Of a stretch of 29,185 nt of DNA, positions 750 through 29,185 are shown piece by piece. The notes under the pieces were generated by a model, which did not search any database, was not told the origin of the DNA, and worked only from the letters and a program-made list of their open reading frames with translations. Numbering within the stretch: position 1 is the stretch's first letter; every line of letters starts with the position of its first letter. Both the position numbers and the translations under genes were made by a program. This stretch comes from a virus (taxonomy: Duplodnaviria > Caudoviricetes): the IMG/VR virus record IMGVR_UViG_3300048998_000133, positions 1 to 29,185 of that record. One strand, 5' to 3'.

Positions 750-1217
750 TCATGGGCCGAACACGATCGCGGTCCAGCGTGTGGACTGCCCCGTCTGAAT
801 GTTGCCGGTCGGTCCAGGCCCGAAGTAAGACCCACGCAATTTGATGGTATGGCTTCCGGCCAGAGGGAGAATGGGACTCCATTGCTGACCGATTGTACCC
901 CTAACCCCATTGAAATGCGCTTCAGCTGTGCCACCCAAGCTGACCCCATCAACCAGAGCCACACCGATGAAATTGGCACCCGTGACGCCGACGTCCACAT
1001 TGTTAGTGAAAGAGATGTCAAAGAACGCGGTGACAAGCACCTTGGTGTTCGAGTACTGCGTGGTAAACGTCAGCGACGTGCCCGTGAGGTCAGTAGGTGT
1101 GACGGTCATGTTCTGAGGGAACGATGTCTGCGACGCCCCGATGAACTGGAATGAAGTAGAGCCGATCTGATCGGCCTCCGATGCCGCGAACTTTTGCCCC
1201 GCGTGAAATGTCATCAA
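750..1217 (-). CDS. Minor tail / tail-tip protein, last gene of the late operon
   Basis: 155 aa, Thr/Gly-rich beta composition; F-x-AGQK N-terminus of the kind seen in actinophage tail proteins; position. Confidence 0.6.
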   Translation of the reverse strand: MMTFHAGQKFAASEADQIGSTSFQFIGASQTSFPQNMTVTPTDLTGTSLTFTTQYSNTKVLVTAFFDISFTNNVDVGVTGANFIGVALVDGVSLGGTAEAHFNGVRGTIGQQWSPILPLAGSHTIKLRGSYFGPGPTGNIQTGQSTRWTAIVFGP

Positions 1218-1223
1218 TGCCCC

Positions 1224-3545
1224 CTACAAACTCAGGACCGTCGGTCGCCACACGGACACCGAGACTCCGGCAGCGAGTGTCTTCGTCACGGTGGAGGAGT
1301 CGACCGTGAAAATCTGTGTTGTGCCCGAACCGGTGATGTTGGTGACACTCACCACGATGCCGTCAATGTCGACCAGGAGTGGGAAGTCATCCGAGTCCGT
1401 TGTCCAGTTTGGACCGGATGCTGTCGTCACCGAGATGCTGGCGGCACCGATATCAGCATTCATCGCCACAACGCTGTCGTCGGTGTCCAACCGCATGACG
1501 AACTCGCCGGTGTCGCCGCTGTCAGCAGCCAGCACACCCACTCGCCAGGGATCATAGGAGGAGCAGTTCGCGGCCACACTTACCACGAACTTATTGATGT
1601 TCCATGTCATACCTTGAATGAGTAGAGAGATGGTCTGCGCAGGCATCTGGGTGTAGGCGTTTTCGATGTTGGTGATGTCGACGCGACCCAGAATCCCCAT
1701 GTTCAGCCAGCTGTCCAGCAAATGTGGCGAGTGATGGAACGCCAGATTCAGCGACGGATAGCGGTAGCCCTGCACCGTATTCTCGTGCACACGCCAGGAC
1801 GCCCTCTCCTGGAGACCCTTGATTCCGTAGGCACCCCCCAGGCTGCCCACCTCATTGGAGTTCAGGTTGACCGTGGCCGAGTCCTCGAACAGACCGACCA
1901 TGTTGGTGCCCAGCGGGCCATCGGTATCCTCGAAGACCACAGAGGAGCCGTTGCGCTGCTGGATGGTCCATCGGTTGCGCAGTAGCTGGTCATCGTCGGC
2001 CGGATCGAACGATGGCGCGATGTCGCTGCTCGTGGCATCAATGGTGAGGCTGGCAGACTGGTTCTCCAGGTACGTGCGCGAAAAGAAGCTCAGCGAGCCG
2101 TTGAGGCCGTCAAATAAAACACCTGGCTCAGTCTGCTCGCATTCACGCAGCAGGTTCACCACGGTGTCAATGCGCTGCGGCCCCATGAAGACCGAAGTGA
2201 CAAGGCCATCGCTGGAGTAGGCCACCGGATCGATATTGACCAGACCAAGTAGGCGCGTCGCTCGGTCCTCGGCCGTCTCGCCATCGAAGGCGGACAACGG
2301 CTGGATCATGTCGAAGATGTCGGTGACCTGGTTCTGCACCGAAAGGTGCCCGATCGCCACGCTGGTGTTCACGTTCGCTGGCAGCAGCTGGACCGAGGTG
2401 ACGTTGCCGATGTTCCCCGTCACGGAGAAGGTGTTCTCCGCCGGCTCAAAGTCGCCTGGCCCCATCGTGGACAGCGTCCCGCTGGTGTTCGAGCCGTTCG
2501 CCGCCATCCGAACCTGAACCAGCAGGTTGAGTCCGTTGAGGATGTATCCCAGCGGCCCGGTGTCGGTCAGCACGGTGCCGGCGGGGTCGTACGCCTTCAC
2601 GCCGAGGCTGCCCCCGGTGTAGTAGATCAACTCCCAGGACCTGATGTCGCCCGTGGACCACGCCCGCATCACCACGGTGCCGTCCGGCAGGGCGCTGGAC
2701 GCCTGCGGCCACGCCACGAGCATCCGGACCTGAGCGGTGTTCGTCGTGCCGACCGGCAGCGGGACATCGGCGTAGGCCATGCCGTTGAAGACCGGGATCG
2801 AGTCCGAGCACAGGAACGAGCTGTTCTGGTGCAAGGAGAACTTCGAGTTCGGCTGCACCACGTCGGTGCCCAGCGCGTACGTCATCAGCCTGCCGTCCGG
2901 CAGCGCCGAGGCGAGAGCTGGCGCGGAGGCGTCGTCCTCCATCGGCCAGTAGGCGAGAAGCCCTGCCACGGCTGGTGTGTAGTGCCGCATGGCGGACTGG
3001 ATCGGCTTGTTGCCCTGCCCGAGCCGGCGGAGCAAGCCGTTGGCGGTGACCTTGGTGATGGCGTACTCGCCCGTGACGTCCCAGCCCGGGTTGAAGCCGA
3101 CGGCGTTGCCCTCGAACAGCGTGAAGGGGATGCCGTCGAGCAGCAGCCGGATCCGGATCGGGGTGCTGCGCTTCACGTTGGGCCAGTTGGATCCCAGCGG
3201 CGACTGCGAGTACTTGTTCAGCCGATTGTCCAGCGTGAACTTGCACGAGGCCGGCGAGGCGGTGGAGTGCTCGTCGGTGCGCCCCACGGTGATGGAGAGG
3301 TTCTGGTTCGAGGCCACCTGAACGTCGGTGGTCACTTCCGACCATCCCCAGGTGGTGGAGCTCGCGTTCAGGTCCGCACCCCAAGCGATCTCCACCATGA
3401 GGTGCAGCGAGTCGCCGAACTGCTGCGTGAGGATCGGCACGCCACCGACCGCGCCAGCGCCCAGCATCGGCACGCTGGTGTCGTGCCTGCCCCTGAGAAG
3501 CCGCCTCTGGTCCTCGATCAGGGCCGGACGCATCTGCCTCCGCAC
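1224..3545 (-). CDS. Large minor tail protein (tail tip/hub, possible LamG-like beta domain)
   Basis: 773 aa downstream of tape measure; 'ITVGRTDE...FTLDN' and 'LLAYWPMED' motifs; GGAG-like RBS. Confidence 0.75.
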   Translation of the reverse strand: MRRQMRPALIEDQRRLLRGRHDTSVPMLGAGAVGGVPILTQQFGDSLHLMVEIAWGADLNASSTTWGWSEVTTDVQVASNQNLSITVGRTDEHSTASPASCKFTLDNRLNKYSQSPLGSNWPNVKRSTPIRIRLLLDGIPFTLFEGNAVGFNPGWDVTGEYAITKVTANGLLRRLGQGNKPIQSAMRHYTPAVAGLLAYWPMEDDASAPALASALPDGRLMTYALGTDVVQPNSKFSLHQNSSFLCSDSIPVFNGMAYADVPLPVGTTNTAQVRMLVAWPQASSALPDGTVVMRAWSTGDIRSWELIYYTGGSLGVKAYDPAGTVLTDTGPLGYILNGLNLLVQVRMAANGSNTSGTLSTMGPGDFEPAENTFSVTGNIGNVTSVQLLPANVNTSVAIGHLSVQNQVTDIFDMIQPLSAFDGETAEDRATRLLGLVNIDPVAYSSDGLVTSVFMGPQRIDTVVNLLRECEQTEPGVLFDGLNGSLSFFSRTYLENQSASLTIDATSSDIAPSFDPADDDQLLRNRWTIQQRNGSSVVFEDTDGPLGTNMVGLFEDSATVNLNSNEVGSLGGAYGIKGLQERASWRVHENTVQGYRYPSLNLAFHHSPHLLDSWLNMGILGRVDITNIENAYTQMPAQTISLLIQGMTWNINKFVVSVAANCSSYDPWRVGVLAADSGDTGEFVMRLDTDDSVVAMNADIGAASISVTTASGPNWTTDSDDFPLLVDIDGIVVSVTNITGSGTTQIFTVDSSTVTKTLAAGVSVSVWRPTVLSL

Positions 3546-3580: not shown

Positions 3581-4102
3581 TCACTCGTCCCAGCAGACCC
3601 AGCAGCGCATGTCCACCGCGGTTGTCGGAGTGGTGGCGCGCACGCGCAGGAACTTCGAGACGTTGATGATCGGCCGCTCTGCCTCCAGGAACTGGAACGC
3701 GTACTGCATCACCGGAGCAGCCTCAGCGGACACCGAGGACATCGAGACCACGTCGAAAACCCGAGTCGCGGTGATGGTGCCCTCAGTCGGCGCGGTGCTG
3801 GCGTAACCAGTCCCTGACGTGCTCAGCGTCATCAGCGAGGCCGGCAGACCAGGCCACACCGGCTGGACGCCTGCGGCCACGTGCGCGGTCAGACCCGTGG
3901 CCGCCACGTCCGTCTCCAGCAGCTCGAAGGTCGCGTCAGCACCGGGCGGGTCGTCGACCGAGAAGCCCCACGACACGAGCTGGATCATGCGGGTGCTCGG
4001 CGTCGCGATCTGGAGCATGGTCTTGATGGCGGTGCCGGTGGTCACCTGCTGCTGCGCGGCGATAGTCGGAGCCGGTCCATTCCAGCACTTGTAGCGATGC
4101 AT
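3581..4102 (-). CDS. Virion structural protein of unknown function following tape measure
   Basis: 173 aa, AGGAG RBS, Thr/Ala-rich, position. Confidence 0.65.
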   Translation of the reverse strand: MHRYKCWNGPAPTIAAQQQVTTGTAIKTMLQIATPSTRMIQLVSWGFSVDDPPGADATFELLETDVAATGLTAHVAAGVQPVWPGLPASLMTLSTSGTGYASTAPTEGTITATRVFDVVSMSSVSAEAAPVMQYAFQFLEAERPIINVSKFLRVRATTPTTAVDMRCWVCWDE

Positions 4103-20738: not shown

Positions 20739-21019
20739 TACTCGTAGCCGCGCTTCGCCATCAGCTCGTAGCAGCGCCGGATGTCGTCGTAGGTGAGCTT
20801 CGGTGGGTCCGTGATCTGGGTGGGCACCTGCGGCCGGCCGAAGACCATCTCATCGACCATCCGCTCTGTGTCTCGGACCATCGACTCGATGACGGCCCCC
20901 AGGAGCCGCATGTCGGCCTCACGCTCCTGCGGGGTGGTGGACTCGGCCCACCTCCATCGGATCGTGCACAGGTCGCTCTGGGGGTCCGTGTGGACGATCT
21001 CGAAGGGCGGCTCGTGCAT
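20738..21019 (-). CDS. Hypothetical protein (93 aa)
   Basis: TGATG coupling to the rep stop; normal codon usage. Confidence 0.65.
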   Translation of the reverse strand: MHEPPFEIVHTDPQSDLCTIRWRWAESTTPQEREADMRLLGAVIESMVRDTERMVDEMVFGRPQVPTQITDPPKLTYDDIRRCYELMAKRGYE

Positions 21020-22782
21020 CAGACACCCACCAGCAGGTCGCCCAAGTGCTTCTCCCGCAGCGTGATGTGCTCGGACTTCTGGCTGACGTACTCGCCGACC
21101 CGGTCACGGGCGAACGCCTCGTTCAGCTCGTCCATCTCCTCGGGCGCGGCGTCGAGAAGCGCGTTGATCTCCCGCTCGTGCAGCTTGGCCAGGAGCTCGC
21201 GACGGCCCTGCTCGGTCTTGGCCCGCTCGCGGTTGCGGCTCTTGGCGGCCAGCTGCTGGATGCGGTTGCGGTCCACGGTGGAGTGTTCCTCCTCGTCACG
21301 CTGCATGGGGATGGCCACGGGCAGCTCGACGGCGTCGGGCTGGTCAGAGCTAATACCCTTCTCCAGGGTATTAACCGAGCGTGACTCTTGATCACCTTCG
21401 GTTGAGGTCAAGATCTTGACCTCAACGGCCGGCTCCTGGGCCACGTCGCCGCGCACCCGGTTGCTCATTCGCGTGAGCATGGCCCGGCTCTCGGCCTGCT
21501 GTTCGGGAGTCTGGGCCGCACGCTGCTTGTCGTGCTCCGCCTTGCGCGCCTCGTTCTCGGCGTGCTCGGTCTCGAACGCCTCGACCACCTGCTCATGGGT
21601 CCGCGCCTTCAGCACCGTGGTCCTGGTGTCGTCCATGTGCCAGCAGTTGAAGAAGAAGGTTCGCAGGGTGCTGGTGTGGAACGGCTTGTCCGGCCGATCG
21701 TGGGTTACGACAACCTTCCTGGTCTTGGTGTCGTCGCCGTACGCCTCGTGTGTGAAGGTGCCCAGGATCTTGTCGATGGTGTCGTTCATCAGCTTCGGCT
21801 CGTACTGCTCGTCAACCAGGAAATAGCAGAGGATCGACTGGAGCTGTGTGACCCAGGGCTCCTCGATCACCTCGCCGGGCTTCTTGCCGGCCACCAGGCG
21901 CTCCCAGTACGGCCGCCAGTCGTGGCTGGGTGCGTAGTCGGCCAAGAGGTCCAGGGCCTCACGGTCGTACCGGTGATCAGGCAACGCGGCGTTCTTGGTG
22001 GCCTTGCGGGACCGCGCCGGCTTCTTCTCGGCCAAGTCACCTGAACGACGGAAGCGTGGGCGTGCGGTGTCCTTGGGCGGGTTGATGGTCTCGATCTGCC
22101 TCGCGTCTTCTTTGTGGCCGCAGGCCACGTCAGTCAGCTGCTCGGGGGGTGGCGCACAAGAAGATGTGTGTACGACCTGGTCTGACCCCGTGGTCTGGTG
22201 CCTGATCTGGTGCCTGGTCTGTTCGTGTAGGTACTGGCTACCACCCTGGTCGTCAGTAGCAACCACCCCTGGTTGCTGTTGGCTACCACCCTGGTTGGCG
22301 TTGGCTACCACCCCTGGTGCCTGGGAGACATCACCCTGGTTGCTAGTAGCGACCACCCCCAGGAACCAGGTCTCGCCGGCCTGGTCGTGCAGGGTGTACA
22401 GCGAGCTGGTCGGCGAGCCCTTCTCGTTGAACCGGAGCTCGATCGCCAGGACGCCCTCAGACTCCAGCTCCCGCAGGCCCTTGCGCATGAGGTCGACCGA
22501 GCACCGCACCTCCCTGGCCAAGGTGGGGAGCGACGGCCAGCACGTCTGGTCGTTGGGGTGCGGCTCCTCATCGGGACGACGGACGTAGAAGCCCAGCGCG
22601 GTCAGCGCGAGCACGCCTCGGTAGGTGAGGTCCTTGGACGCGAACTTGATCGCCCTGCGGCGGACCATCGAGAAGATCTCGGTCTCGTCGTACTGCTGCT
22701 GCCGGTCGTCCTGTCCAACCTGGTCCGGCAGCTTGGCGTCTTCGAGCTTTGAGGGAGTCATCTCAGACTGGTACCCTGACAT
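21019..22782 (-). CDS. Replication initiator, N-terminal winged HTH (HTH_36-like)
   Basis: 'CWPSLPTLAREVRCS....RKGLRELE..G.L....R......SSLYTL'; internal iterons; start at 22782 chosen for its AAGGAA RBS. Confidence 0.8.
   Translation of the reverse strand: MSGYQSEMTPSKLEDAKLPDQVGQDDRQQQYDETEIFSMVRRRAIKFASKDLTYRGVLALTALGFYVRRPDEEPHPNDQTCWPSLPTLAREVRCSVDLMRKGLRELESEGVLAIELRFNEKGSPTSSLYTLHDQAGETWFLGVVATSNQGDVSQAPGVVANANQGGSQQQPGVVATDDQGGSQYLHEQTRHQIRHQTTGSDQVVHTSSCAPPPEQLTDVACGHKEDARQIETINPPKDTARPRFRRSGDLAEKKPARSRKATKNAALPDHRYDREALDLLADYAPSHDWRPYWERLVAGKKPGEVIEEPWVTQLQSILCYFLVDEQYEPKLMNDTIDKILGTFTHEAYGDDTKTRKVVVTHDRPDKPFHTSTLRTFFFNCWHMDDTRTTVLKARTHEQVVEAFETEHAENEARKAEHDKQRAAQTPEQQAESRAMLTRMSNRVRGDVAQEPAVEVKILTSTEGDQESRSVNTLEKGISSDQPDAVELPVAIPMQRDEEEHSTVDRNRIQQLAAKSRNRERAKTEQGRRELLAKLHEREINALLDAAPEEMDELNEAFARDRVGEYVSQKSEHITLREKHLGDLLVGV
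21401..21426. repeat. Perfect 26-bp palindrome GTTGAGGTCAAGA/TCTTGACCTCAAC
   Basis: Read directly; no spacer; inside the rep coding sequence. Confidence 0.9.
22235..22363. repeat. Iteron-like array, putative replication origin
   Basis: Six degenerate copies of T(G/A)GC(T/A)ACCACCC(C)TGGT at about 22-23 bp period inside rep. Confidence 0.75.
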
Positions 22783-22861
22783 GGCCTGATGTTCCTTTCC
22801 AAAGAATACCGTGAATGCAGCCCGCGAAGAATGCATTCACCTACTGAAAATAATTCTTTCG

Positions 22862-25632: not shown

Positions 25633-26532
25633 TCAGACCCTGTTTCCTCGACCCAAGCGTTGTGCTGCGGCCTTGGCGCGGGCGTCTGCGGCGGCGAGGC
25701 CGTAGCGCTCCAGCATCGTGTCCGACGACCAGCCGGCGAGCCTCTTGAGATCGCGCTCCTGACCGCCGGCCATGAGGAAGTCGTGGGCGAAGCTGTGGCG
25801 GAAGCGGTGGGGGTGGACACCCTTGATGCCGACAAGGGCCCCACGATCCCTCAGCATGCAGCGGACGCCGTCCGTCTTCATCGGACCCCGCTGGCCGAGG
25901 AAGAGCGCCCGCTCGTGCGCGTGGGGGTGCTTAAGGCGGTCGCGGAGGTACCGGTCCAGGGCCCGGCTGGTCTTGGCGCAGAAGTAGATCATCCTGGGCT
26001 TGCGGCCCTTGCCGACGATGAGCGCGCCCTCGGCGTCGAGGTCGATCTGCTCAACCTCCAACGAGCACAGCTCGCCCACCCGGACTCCGCAGTCCATCAG
26101 GAGCCTGATGATGGCCTCGTCCCTGCGGTCGTAGAAGCTCTTGGTCTTGCACGTGCCCAACAGCGCGGCGATCTCGTCGTCGCTGAGCAGCTCCACCGGC
26201 TTGATCGGCACGGTCGGCGACTTCAGGTTGGCCATCGGGTTTGCGTCGATGAGCTCCTCGGCCACCGCCCACAGGCAGAATCTCAGCAGCCCCTTATGCC
26301 GGGTCTGGACGGTGGCCGGCTCGCTGACGGCGGACAGGTCGATCATCCAGTCCCGGATCAGGTCCCGGGTCAGGTTGTCCGTCGTCGACTCGTGGCCGTT
26401 GCGAGCCAGCCACTCGGCGTAGAAGAGCGGCGCGGCCGAGTACGTGGTGATCGTGTGTGGGCTCTTGCCCTCGGCTCGAAGGTCTCGCCGGAACGATCTC
26501 AGCAGGTCTTCCAAGCGGCTGCTCATGATCAT
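25633..26532 (-). CDS. int: Tyrosine recombinase/integrase (XerC/D-like)
   Basis: Catalytic R (CGVRVGE), K (GKGRK), HxxR (HRFRH), W (AGW) and Y (LERY); GGAGG RBS before 26532/26526. Confidence 0.93.
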   Translation of the reverse strand: MIMSSRLEDLLRSFRRDLRAEGKSPHTITTYSAAPLFYAEWLARNGHESTTDNLTRDLIRDWMIDLSAVSEPATVQTRHKGLLRFCLWAVAEELIDANPMANLKSPTVPIKPVELLSDDEIAALLGTCKTKSFYDRRDEAIIRLLMDCGVRVGELCSLEVEQIDLDAEGALIVGKGRKPRMIYFCAKTSRALDRYLRDRLKHPHAHERALFLGQRGPMKTDGVRCMLRDRGALVGIKGVHPHRFRHSFAHDFLMAGGQERDLKRLAGWSSDTMLERYGLAAADARAKAAAQRLGRGNRV

Positions 26533-26568
26533 CACCCCTCCACTTCGAGGGCGAAGGTATAGCTTGAG

Positions 26569-26736
26569 CAAGCGTCGTGCACGCAACCCTTGTTCGGGAT
26601 CGTGTACTGTTTTGCCTGGTAGGAGCCTGGGATGCACCTCGCCGGGAGCTTGGAACTCACCGGATACCAATCTGGTATCGACGATCCAAGCGTCGTGCTG
26701 ACCTGCAAAGACGCAGGTCGCGCCGAAGCGTCGTGC
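26569..26736 (+). repeat. Three direct repeats AAGCGTCGTGC upstream of the integrase (candidate attP/regulatory region)
   Basis: Copies at 26570-26580, 26688-26698 and 26726-26736; related copies at 25538-25547 and 25654-25665. Confidence 0.75.
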
Positions 26737-27720: not shown

Positions 27721-27921
27721 TCAGGCCGTGAAGCTGCCGTGCTTCACGGCGTCGGTGAACTTGGCGAACGTGCCCTTGTCCAGCTCAAGCACGCCACCCT
27801 CAGGGTTCTTGCTGTCGCGCACGAAGACCGTTGTCTCCCATGCGAGCTCGACGCAGCTCCCGCCGTTGCTGCCGGAGTACGACGACGTGCGCCATCGCAG
27901 CCGACTCAGGTCCGGGGTCAT
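27721..27921 (-). CDS. DUF397 domain protein (BldB/Scr2-like)
   Basis: 'WRTSSYS....GSCVELA.....VRDSKNP.G..L' signature; GGAGG RBS before ATG 27921. Confidence 0.93.
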   Translation of the reverse strand: MTPDLSRLRWRTSSYSGSNGGSCVELAWETTVFVRDSKNPEGGVLELDKGTFAKFTDAVKHGSFTA

Positions 27922-27942
27922 CGCCCGCACCTCCGATTCTGG

Positions 27943-27961
27943 TCGTCACAGTTGCTGGCTC
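27943..27961 (+). repeat. 19-bp direct repeat copy 1 (TCGTCACAGTTGCTGGCTC), over the DUF5753 gene stop codon
   Basis: Exact match to 28937-28955. Confidence 0.9.
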
Positions 27962-28797
27962 AGCCTACTGAGCAACTTGCGCGAGCTCTCTGCGTTATTC
28001 GCGCTGGTCAGCAGAGCCGGCCACGTCAAGGCGTCGTAGGTCTCGGTTCGGCCGGGCTCGGTGACGAACAAGCCGTCCGTCAAGTTCTCGGTGTACGCGA
28101 CCACCGGACGGTCGGGTGGGGTGAACAGCACGAAGGAGAAACCGGCCGCGACGTGCGCGCCGGTCTTGAAGGTGACCACCTGGATGGTGATGTTCGGCCG
28201 CTTCGACAGCTCGACCAGGTGCTGGAGCTGAGCCTTCATCACCTCCGGTCCGCCGACTTCACGGTGGAGGGCACCTTCGGAGAGCACCATGTGCAGCTCG
28301 GGAGGATTCGCGCCGTTCAGCCGCTGCTGCCGCGCCATTCGAGCCTGGACCAGCCGTGTGACGTCGCCCGGTCGGTGAACCGGATTGGATGAGATCAGCG
28401 CCCGTGCGTAGTCCTCCGTCTGCGCCAAGCCGTGGATGACCTCGGGGTCGTAGGTCCGAATCAGGAGCGCCGTCTCCTCGGTCGGGAAGTACTTCTTCAA
28501 CGCCTCAGGAACGGCCGAGCCCCATGGCGTCGCCGGCCTGCGCCGTCGTGCCTCCTCGCCCAGCTGCACCATCTCGTCCCGCTCGGTGCCCTTGAGCTTG
28601 AAGTGGTCGAGCAGCAACCGCAGTTCAGCGGCGTTCACCGCGACGTCGCCACGGAGGATCCGGTTGACCTTCGACGGCGAGCACTCCAGCAGCTTCTCGA
28701 CCTGGTCCTTGCTGGTCCCGGCAGCCTCCATCAACTCGGCGATGCGCTCACCGAGGCGCTTCTTGTAGTCCGCCGGACCATGGCCGTGCTCCGTCAT
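27946..28797 (-). CDS. XRE-family HTH + DUF5753 regulator (WhiJ/Scr1-like), probably leaderless
   Basis: 283 aa; N-terminal XRE HTH, 'GLAQTEDYARAL', 'R.ARQQRL', 'E.AL.R.VGG..VM..QL.HL'; CAGACT -10-like box 7 nt before the ATG. Confidence 0.93.
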   Translation of the reverse strand: MTEHGHGPADYKKRLGERIAELMEAAGTSKDQVEKLLECSPSKVNRILRGDVAVNAAELRLLLDHFKLKGTERDEMVQLGEEARRRRPATPWGSAVPEALKKYFPTEETALLIRTYDPEVIHGLAQTEDYARALISSNPVHRPGDVTRLVQARMARQQRLNGANPPELHMVLSEGALHREVGGPEVMKAQLQHLVELSKRPNITIQVVTFKTGAHVAAGFSFVLFTPPDRPVVAYTENLTDGLFVTEPGRTETYDALTWPALLTSANNAESSRKLLSRLSQQL

Positions 28798-28804
28798 GCG
28801 GAAC

Positions 28805-28880
28805 AGTCTGCACGATCCGTGAGCGCACGCAGTTCCCCCGGATGGGCGTCTACGCAATCTGCGCACGCAGGTTGTACGGT
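28805..28880. promoter_or_regulatory. Divergent promoter region with GCGCACGCAG direct repeats
   Basis: -10-like CAGACT (minus, 28805-28810) and TACGGT (plus, 28875-28880); repeats at 28823-28832 and 28861-28870. Confidence 0.55.
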
Positions 28881-28919
28881 CAGATGGCTCACGCGGCCAG
28901 CTGGACAGACTGCGGAGCA

Positions 28920-28963
28920 CCCGTCCCGGGCCGACTTCGTCACAGTTGCTGGCTCGGGGCGGG
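28920..28963 (+). ncRNA. Candidate antisense hairpin in the 5' leader, containing copy 2 of the 19-bp repeat (28937-28955)
   Basis: 13-bp stem with two G-U pairs that favour the + strand RNA; loop and 3' arm are complementary to the DUF5753 mRNA stop region. Confidence 0.5.
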
Positions 28964-28984
28964 CCTCATCCCTGGGAGGCGGAC

Positions 28985-29185
28985 ATGGACGTCGAGGTCG
29001 CGGTGACGCTGCTCGTGGGCGGTGCGTGCCTGGTGATCGTGGGCATCGCCGGCCTGGTCGAGCTGATCAGACGACGACGCGAGCGATGGCTGATCGTGTC
29101 CGCCCAGGTAACCGCGGTGAAGAGCCACCGCGCCCACGACGTCGCGGACTCGGAGTGCCCTGACACCTCCGAGTCCGCGATTACC
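28985..29185 (+). CDS. Small membrane protein (MDVEVAVTLLVGG...), open at the window end; 71 aa if the ends are joined
   Basis: GGAGG RBS; one TM helix followed by RRRRER; the frame continues into positions 15-32 to a TAG. Confidence 0.7.
   Translation, partial: MDVEVAVTLLVGGACLVIVGIAGLVELIRRRRERWLIVSAQVTAVKSHRAHDVADSECPDTSESAIT
29142..29180. repeat. 14-bp perfect inverted repeat with 11-nt spacer, overlapping the right terminal repeat
   Basis: TCGCGGACTCGGAG-tgccctgacac-CTCCGAGTCCGCGA. Confidence 0.9.

Follow-up and report, generated by a model that had tools for sequence, protein, structure and literature searches.

In the virus record IMGVR_UViG_3300048998_000133 (29,185 bp, annotated as linear, completeness estimated at 83% by CheckV), which was analysed over its full length and is called the window below, a 19-nucleotide (nt) sequence is repeated directly at two places of a regulator module consisting of an XRE-type regulator gene and a DUF397 gene. 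One copy covers the stop codon of the regulator gene, the other is found in a hairpin in front of the divergently oriented neighbouring gene. Since the genes diverge and the DNA repeat is direct, the RNAs read from the two sites are complementary. In related loci, the hairpin, the presence of the repeat in its loop and a -10-like hexamer upstream of it are conserved, while the matching sequence is specific for each locus. The probability that the complementarity serves functional RNA-RNA pairing encoded within the locus is put at about 0.5 from these sequence comparisons; both RNAs would then be made and meet, and their pairing would have a regulatory effect in one direction or the other. The features needed for this argument are:

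27943-27961, minus strand: copy 1 of the 19-mer; the minus-strand mRNA reads GAGCCAGCAACUGUGACGA, the predicted target site
28937-28955, plus strand: copy 2 of the 19-mer; as plus-strand RNA a perfect complement of copy 1 on the minus-strand mRNA
28920-28963, plus strand: GC-rich hairpin which shows copy 2 in its loop and 3' arm; conserved in six loci; covariance model R1, 59 bits
27946-28797, minus strand: XRE-type regulator gene (HTH_31 plus DUF5753; phrog_9908), 283 amino acids (aa) plus stop codon
27721-27921, minus strand: DUF397 gene (phrog_10815), 66 aa plus stop codon; ATG at 27921, consistent with relatives
27931-27935, minus strand: GGAGG, ribosome-binding site (RBS) of the DUF397 gene by sequence reading; on the mRNA 8 nt downstream of copy 1

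Exactly two copies of the 19-mer TCGTCACAGTTGCTGGCTC are present in the window, both reading on the plus strand (27943-27961 and 28937-28955) and 994 bp apart. No third copy was found in the window even when three mismatches were allowed (0.02 expected), and none of 100 shuffles contained two copies. Shuffling the whole window 60 times with dinucleotides preserved gave exact direct repeats of at most 17 nt, a maximum exceeded in the real window by the 19-mer and by a 20-mer unrelated to it. When 150 nt to either side of both copies were aligned locally, no similarity beyond the 19 nt was seen, i.e., the identity has sharp ends. Copy 1 is the reverse complement of AGC CAG CAA CTG TGA plus CGA, which is SQQL-stop of the XRE gene followed by 3 nt; it lies 8 nt upstream of the DUF397 GGAGG and 22 nt upstream of the DUF397 ATG. 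Copy 2 occupies the loop and 3' arm of the hairpin, 30 nt before the ATG at 28985 of the divergent open reading frame (ORF). The original prediction had named two exact copies 994 bp apart, one of them on the last codons and the TGA of the regulator gene just before the DUF397 RBS; both statements were reproduced, and its claim that an exact 19-mer is unlikely by chance in 29 kb agrees with the shuffled controls.

The unrelated 20-mer, which is the longest exact direct repeat of the window, is located at 2694-2713 and 3862-3881 in large minus-strand ORFs of the tail region and is probably an internal protein repeat or a duplication.

Matching of junction and leader in related loci

The locus set, oriented on the XRE gene throughout, comprised 80 loci from metagenomes as well as one viral and one Streptomyces locus. 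Both regions were available for 66 loci (window included), and the longest exact stretch of the junction was sought within 400 nt upstream of the XRE start of the same locus. The window had the longest match (19 nt), followed by L084, its duplicate L011 and L009 (15 nt each), L005 (12 nt) and one further locus (10 nt); the other 60 loci had at most 9 nt. As controls, junctions compared with foreign upstream regions gave a maximum of 12 nt in 391 comparisons, and the own reverse complement gave at most 11 nt. When mismatches were allowed, L005 matched at 16 of 18 and L010 at 13 of 15 positions. The same upstream element is present in L004, the contig of which stops before the XRE stop codon. 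The distance from the upstream copy to the XRE start is 158-224 nt in all matching loci. In pairwise comparison, the XRE proteins from these loci share 40-57% identity, except for L084 and L009 (85%), and they therefore represent four to five independent lineages.

Within the match, the core AACTGTGAC (encoding ...Q/E L stop) does not vary, and its flanks are locus-specific, being alike at the two sites of one locus and different from those of other loci. Beyond the core, the exact match within a locus extends by 8+2 nt in the window, 3+0 nt in L005, 3+3 nt in L084 and L009, and 2+4 nt in L010; between unrelated loci the extension is 0-3 nt. The only CAA among the 11 Gln codons of the window XRE gene falls in the matched stretch, as does the only AGG among the 30 Arg codons of the XRE gene of L084. 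Natural variants of the module occur in soil metagenomes from other studies (runs X2 and X6). The contig from run X6 (1389 nt, 88% alike) has the junction ...GCTTCGCAACTGTGACGA, with ASQL-stop replacing SQQL-stop; this junction change falls in 27941-27969, and 13 nt of the match are kept.

The repeat might be a functionless relic of a duplication or of illegitimate recombination, with the copies alike by chance or through occasional short-patch conversion. The sharp ends of the identity, the lack of flanking similarity and the small sample are in keeping with such an origin, which is nevertheless considered improbable: had the copies decayed independently, four lineages with 40-57% identity of their proteins would not show different matching flanks, nor would one copy have been kept in the loop of a covarying hairpin. 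Moreover, ordinary homologous conversion would need longer stretches than 12-19 nt.

The nearest database relatives of the regulator have 45-62% identity in Pseudonocardiaceae (Lentzea, Umezawaea, Saccharothrix and Actinosynnema) and 87% and 81% identity in short metagenome contigs. Viral contigs were scanned using the exact 19-mer, a hairpin-plus-core pattern, the XRE protein, an XRE alignment and the integrase, which recovered one other contig (L084/L095); a scan of genome contigs recovered one distant Streptomyces locus. Searches of phages and plasmids with blastn and tblastn gave matches of at most 40% identity only. Among the sampled GTDB genomes (1131 counted, with repeats; a sample without homologues from cultured Lentzea, Umezawaea or Saccharothrix), no homologue above 39% identity was found. 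The own-junction repeat was absent in ten Frankia-type loci. L084 is a provirus, in which a tyrosine integrase gene, the same divergent gene for a small membrane protein, the XRE gene and the DUF397 gene are followed by tail genes (Sipho_Gp37). No phage genes and no integrase are present in the available DNA of L004, L009 and L012. In L009, a second HTH_31 plus DUF5753 gene (1148-1960, minus strand) and a DUF222/HNH endonuclease gene lie just upstream of the module bearing the hairpin.

Hairpin and divergent control region

Folding of the window sequence gave a hairpin with a 14-bp stem including G-U pairs and a loop holding UCGUCAC, which bears out the earlier claim that the other copy is part of a G-U-containing hairpin at 28920-28963 with this loop before the divergent gene. 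Six upstream elements align as one homologous hairpin with a consensus of 16 pairs, and the upstream copy is always in its loop. In this consensus 91.7% of the cells are paired, compared with 82.6% in column shuffles (none of 500 as high) and 40-53% when the partners were slid. Compensatory changes are found at six pairs altered on both sides, e.g., C-G to U-A. The fold in the divergent sense is more stable than that in the XRE sense in all six loci, by a margin of 1.0 to 10.9 kcal/mol. Pairing is possible in 88 of 96 cells in the divergent sense versus 81 of 96 in the XRE sense, with 12 versus 5 G-U pairs; within 13 core pairs, a split chosen after seeing the data, there are 10 G-U pairs in the divergent sense versus one in the XRE sense.

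A comparison of the window and five related loci with the covariance models of Rfam 15 returned no match at E ≤ 1, and covariance model R1, applied to 96 sources, matched its own training hairpins only. An RBS and a start codon follow within about 10-30 nt after the hairpin in six of six loci, and there is no U-tract as in a terminator. The gene thereafter varies: in the window and L084 its product is a small membrane protein and in L004 a zinc-finger protein (zf-HC3); other ORFs are found in L005 (unrelated), L009 (17 codons) and L010. As the downstream gene differs between loci, the hairpin travels with the XRE module and not with the neighbouring gene.

Two further features are situated between the divergent genes of the window:

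28875-28880, plus strand: -10-like hexamer TACGGT (TANNNT), predicted; it would start a divergent transcript about 35-40 nt before the hairpin
28856-28873, no strand assigned: imperfect palindrome AATCTGCGCACGCAGGTT between the divergent genes; candidate XRE operator

The hexamer TANNNT is present in the divergent sense at one aligned position upstream of the hairpin in seven of seven loci. Its forms are TACGGT, TACCGT (three loci), TAACTT, TAGGAT and TATCGT, each abutting a palindrome of locus-specific sequence. In a variant contig (run X2), 28878 G>C changes the window hexamer to TACCGT, as in relatives. Every locus has a palindrome with a sequence of its own between the divergent promoters, and in several loci a second palindromic block of the type CCCGATCGGG follows the promoter palindrome.

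This control region bears on a different explanation of the repeat, in which both copies are DNA sites for one sequence-specific protein (XRE, DUF397 or another phage protein). The sites in the control region and at the end of the regulator gene might act by looping or in separate control of DUF397, with protein and sites co-evolving. Agreement of the sites within a locus together with differences between loci fits the repressor-operator sets of heteroimmune phages. Such co-evolving pairs show the same pattern as the repeat, which counts against functional RNA pairing. The position of the module in a phage lysogeny region would also suit DNA sites, and the palindrome half-site AAACTGTCA is similar to the junction motif AACTGTGAC in L005, L010 and L012. 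There is no such resemblance in the window and L084, where the palindrome is unlike the motif. By sequence reading, the 19-mer itself has no dyad symmetry, and a separate, clear palindrome is already present at the promoter. Operator sets of repressors and stoperators have several copies or dyad symmetry; here, two copies were counted even at three mismatches, and these are not palindromic. The core motif with one mismatch is no more common than in shuffles, and each locus has just two copies; the divergent transcript is predicted to start about 55-75 nt before the upstream one. Binding of a protein would leave unexplained why a long inverted repeat is found at the upstream copy only, why G-U is tolerated on one strand only and why C-G is compensated by U-A. 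Paired DNA sites are judged rather unlikely.

Predicted pairing and gene neighbourhood

Interaction energies corrected for accessibility (hybrid plus opening of both RNAs) ranged from -14.5 to -16.5 kcal/mol where the match is exact (four loci). The best interaction sub-site of the window consists of the 14 nt exposed in the loop, and the predicted heterodimer contains the 19-bp duplex. When duplexes were calculated for short windows, the own locus was best in four of five rows, at 2.0-3.9 standard deviations below 82 unrelated junctions; a duplex matrix for long windows is uninformative for RNA of such high GC content. Cofolding of the whole leader favoured the site over scrambled sites in the window (-14.5 versus -8.3 ± 2.6). 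A second short match, GCCGACT, is present as follows:

27900-27906, minus strand: GCCGACT in DUF397 codons 6-8; the other copy, 28930-28936, immediately precedes copy 2

By means of this match, the leader may also hold the DUF397 start region from both sides, with 36 nt including the RBS and AUG looped out, but the match is possibly due to chance. Second co-linear matches of 6-8 nt beside the main match were seen in three of five loci, which is about the chance level, and no consistent equivalent of the GCCGACT-type match was found in the other loci. In the junctions of L005, L010 and L012, a CUCCU-like stretch in the XRE coding end, about 40 nt upstream, is the predicted pairing partner of the DUF397 RBS. 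The motif AACUGUGAC is in the apical part of this predicted structure in the same three loci, with a mean unpaired probability of 0.79 in L005.

If the pairing is functional, the following course of events may be proposed. The divergent promoter would produce an RNA with the hairpin as its 5' leader, the loop of which would pair at the XRE stop codon of the XRE-DUF397 message, immediately ahead of the DUF397 RBS. The duplex would hinder initiation at DUF397 or its translational coupling, or an RNase specific for double strands would cut the message; DUF397 translation would likely be lowered. That DUF397 is the regulated output is a tentative assignment, less probable than the pairing itself. 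The palindrome at 28856-28873 would be the natural XRE operator common to the two back-to-back promoters. Firing of the divergent operon would then titrate or destroy the XRE-DUF397 message by means of the leader, possibly also in reverse, and the mutual antagonism of the two transcripts would sharpen an either/or choice in this switch of the lysogeny region. Each XRE-DUF397 module of the clade might have its own RNA 'address', in that the loop matches only the own stop-codon junction, the transcripts antagonise each other and paralogous modules are insulated; this generalisation is possible, but doubtful at present.

Pairing might also work in the opposite direction, a variant nested within the pairing idea. 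Here, the stop region of the XRE-DUF397 mRNA would act as antisense which represses or destabilises the divergent operon, like a type I antitoxin acting on a toxin leader. In the window and L084, the gene whose 5' leader holds the element indeed encodes a small protein with a single hydrophobic helix, and known divergent type I loci have a complementarity of 18-21 nt in the toxin 5' untranslated region, according to PMC4147584. However, the first divergent gene is not conserved (zf-HC3 in L004, an unrelated ORF in L005, a 17-codon ORF in L009) and has no known toxicity. This direction was regarded as unlikely.

Several observations weigh against functional pairing. The evidence stems from only four to five independent lineages, all of them metagenome or provirus contigs and all of one small clade. 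The expectation that the leader matches its own junction in homologous loci held for the nearest relatives (L084/L011, L009, L005 and L010) and failed in three close loci (L006, L007 and L012) and about 55 distant XRE-DUF5753 loci, where the repeat is absent. L012 retains the junction motif without the hairpin; in L006 and L007, the XRE and DUF397 genes overlap and neither motif nor hairpin is present. The two mismatches in L010 are not compatible with G-U pairing and reduce the duplex to 7+1+5 bp. Conservation of copy 1 is partly coding, since the core AACTGTGAC encodes the conserved C-terminus ...QL-stop. The free energy of the window hairpin is ordinary for such GC-rich sequence (z = -0.87 versus shuffles); the hairpin is supported by the comparison across loci and not by its energy. 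Some random GC-rich junctions reach comparable short-window duplex energies. Whole-leader cofolding gave no gain over scrambled sites in L084, L005, L009 and L010, although it is a weak test either way, as pairing between loop and target with the stem kept cannot be modelled. Finally, counted from the DUF397 AUG, the pairing reaches no closer than -22, a position at the margin of a ribosome footprint or outside it.

The module is in the lysogeny region of a temperate actinophage, adjoining a tyrosine integrase gene. Structural genes on the minus strand span about 1.2-22.8 kb of the window. The neighbouring features are:

25633-26670, minus strand: tyrosine integrase gene, 1.3 kb from the direct repeats
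28985-29185, plus strand: divergent ORF; the small protein encoded has a single hydrophobic helix and then RRRR; the ORF runs past the end of the window

The regulator was assigned by an N-terminal PF13560 (HTH_31) match at 8e-12 and a C-terminal PF19054 (DUF5753) match at 6e-53. The DUF397 protein matches PF04149 at 3e-18, and its gene is directly downstream of the XRE gene on the same strand with a 24-nt spacer. A regulator with helix-turn-helix and DUF5753 followed by DUF397 on the same strand is the composition of an XRE-DUF5753/DUF397 (WhiJ/BldB-like) pair. With 194 bits versus a curated cut-off of 350 bits for NCBIfam NF058600 (Sco1979 family), the regulator is related to this family but not a member. 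The divergent ORF has an RBS (GGGAGG) at 28974-28979, and 187 bp separate its start from that of the XRE gene; its product matched no family of Pfam or PHROGs.

Given the neighbouring integrase, the copies could be direct repeats for a site-specific recombinase, e.g., this tyrosine integrase, excising the regulator as a 994-bp cassette. Exact direct repeats with sharp ends and an integrase gene 1.3 kb away are what would be seen in this case. Nevertheless, excision appears very improbable. The two sites are not equivalent, as the arms of the inverted repeat are present at one copy only, and no similarity exists outside the 19 nt, which does not resemble att or attC-like sites. The integrase scores 43 bits versus the integron-integrase cut-off of 265 bits, i.e., far below it, and no integrase is encoded in the available DNA of L004, L009 and L012. 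Excision would also part the regulator from DUF397. Among the contigs of the sequencing runs, no joint skipping the 994 bp was found, which carries little weight since contigs drop rare forms.

Further observations concern the window as a whole. Bases 1-14 are identical to 29169-29182, 16 of the 17 last bases match, and a Logan contig (run X1) ends at 29169; the record is probably circular or terminally overlapping rather than ending as a fragment. If the contig is closed on itself, the divergent ORF stops at TAG 30-32 (71 aa). It would then be followed by the plus-strand ORFs 36-293 (with a zinc-ribbon-like motif, CPIC...KKCP), 290-436 and 433-690 and by a hairpin at 696-751. At 22235-22369, in or beside ORF 21019-22836, a unit of 22-23 nt (TGGCTACCACCCTGGT...) is present in five tandem copies, which have an iteron-like look. 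The same ORF contains a perfect 26-bp palindrome with AGATCT at 21401-21426, for which none is expected by chance.

Comparison with known systems

Pairs of XRE-DUF5753 and DUF397 are among the most numerous regulators of filamentous actinobacteria and influence antibiotic production and development, the mechanism being largely unknown according to PMC8269248, PMC10294661, PMC4255298, PMC10364602 and PMC6262351. The window module has the same domain pair and gene order as WhiJ/BldB-type pairs, e.g., Scr1/Scr2 of Streptomyces coelicolor. As described in the literature, whiJ-like clusters adjoin small SCO4542-like and antisigma-like genes, occur on plasmids or mobile DNA and often have a divergent neighbour (PMC4255298). 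Likewise, XRE-DUF397 pairs are abundant and pleiotropic, and DUF397 is usually expressed above XRE, with alternative starts upstream of DUF397 (PMC8269248). Compared with this family, the clade with the hairpin is a small subset. The original prediction knew of no description of such a mechanism for XRE-DUF397 systems; accordingly, in the portions of the open full-text literature on DUF397, DUF5753 and whiJ that were available (subscription journals being outside this scope), no RNA-level link between an XRE-DUF397 pair and a divergent neighbour was found. If functional, the element would add an RNA-guided layer to a protein regulator pair of still unknown mechanism, and paralogous modules in one cell might be insulated from each other. 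Being self-matching, it would offer a concrete and easily tested handle on the ratio of the two proteins and on the link between module and divergent gene.

The cultured Streptomyces phages Samy, Success and Darolandstone encode phrog_9908 and phrog_10815 in the same order by the integrase in the lysogeny region, with divergent neighbours. In contrast to the window, their proteins are 29-33% identical to those described here and the two genes overlap (ATGA). The own-junction repeat is absent in these three phages, the longest direct match being 5-8 nt.

In its layout, the module is similar to those type I toxin-antitoxin loci of E. coli that are divergent and do not overlap (tisB/istR-1, shoB/ohsC, zor/orz as well as dinQ/agrB), in which a short direct repeat makes the RNAs of neighbours complementary. 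According to PMC4147584, the IstR-1 match is 21 nt long, pairing takes place away from the start codon and RNase III cuts the duplexes. Complementarity of about 18-21 nt to an untranslated part of the partner mRNA is a trait of the tisB/istR-1 class; here, the direct repeat predicts an exact complementarity of 19 nt, part of which is coding (last four codons). Several traits of this class differ. A small hydrophobic toxin is regulated in this class, whereas DUF397 (66 aa) has no hydrophobic helix and is no such toxin; the gene for a small membrane protein belongs to the other transcript and is limited to the window and L084. The pairing element is part of the leader of a protein-coding operon and not a dedicated non-coding antisense RNA, an RBS and a start codon following the hairpin in all six loci. 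Its partner site is located at a stop codon, at the junction of the two genes of a regulator message, and the organisms are high-GC actinobacteria and their phages. Short antisense pairing encoded within the locus is a known kind of control, which would be new in this regulator family. Should the pairing be confirmed, the design of a divergent neighbour with a short match, so far from enterobacterial type I loci, would reach high-GC bacteria and regulator genes.

Antisense RNAs also take part in the lysis-lysogeny control of phages, namely OOP of lambda, sar of P22 and c4 of P1/P7. OOP and sar are cis-antisense by overlap, and c4 is processed from the same transcript as its target. The likeness to the module of the window is that a short RNA-RNA pairing in the immunity region tunes the partner gene of a regulator, and an RNA arm would similarly be added to the lysogeny switch of this phage. 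In contrast to OOP, sar and c4, the two RNAs would here originate from back-to-back promoters and match through a displayed loop.

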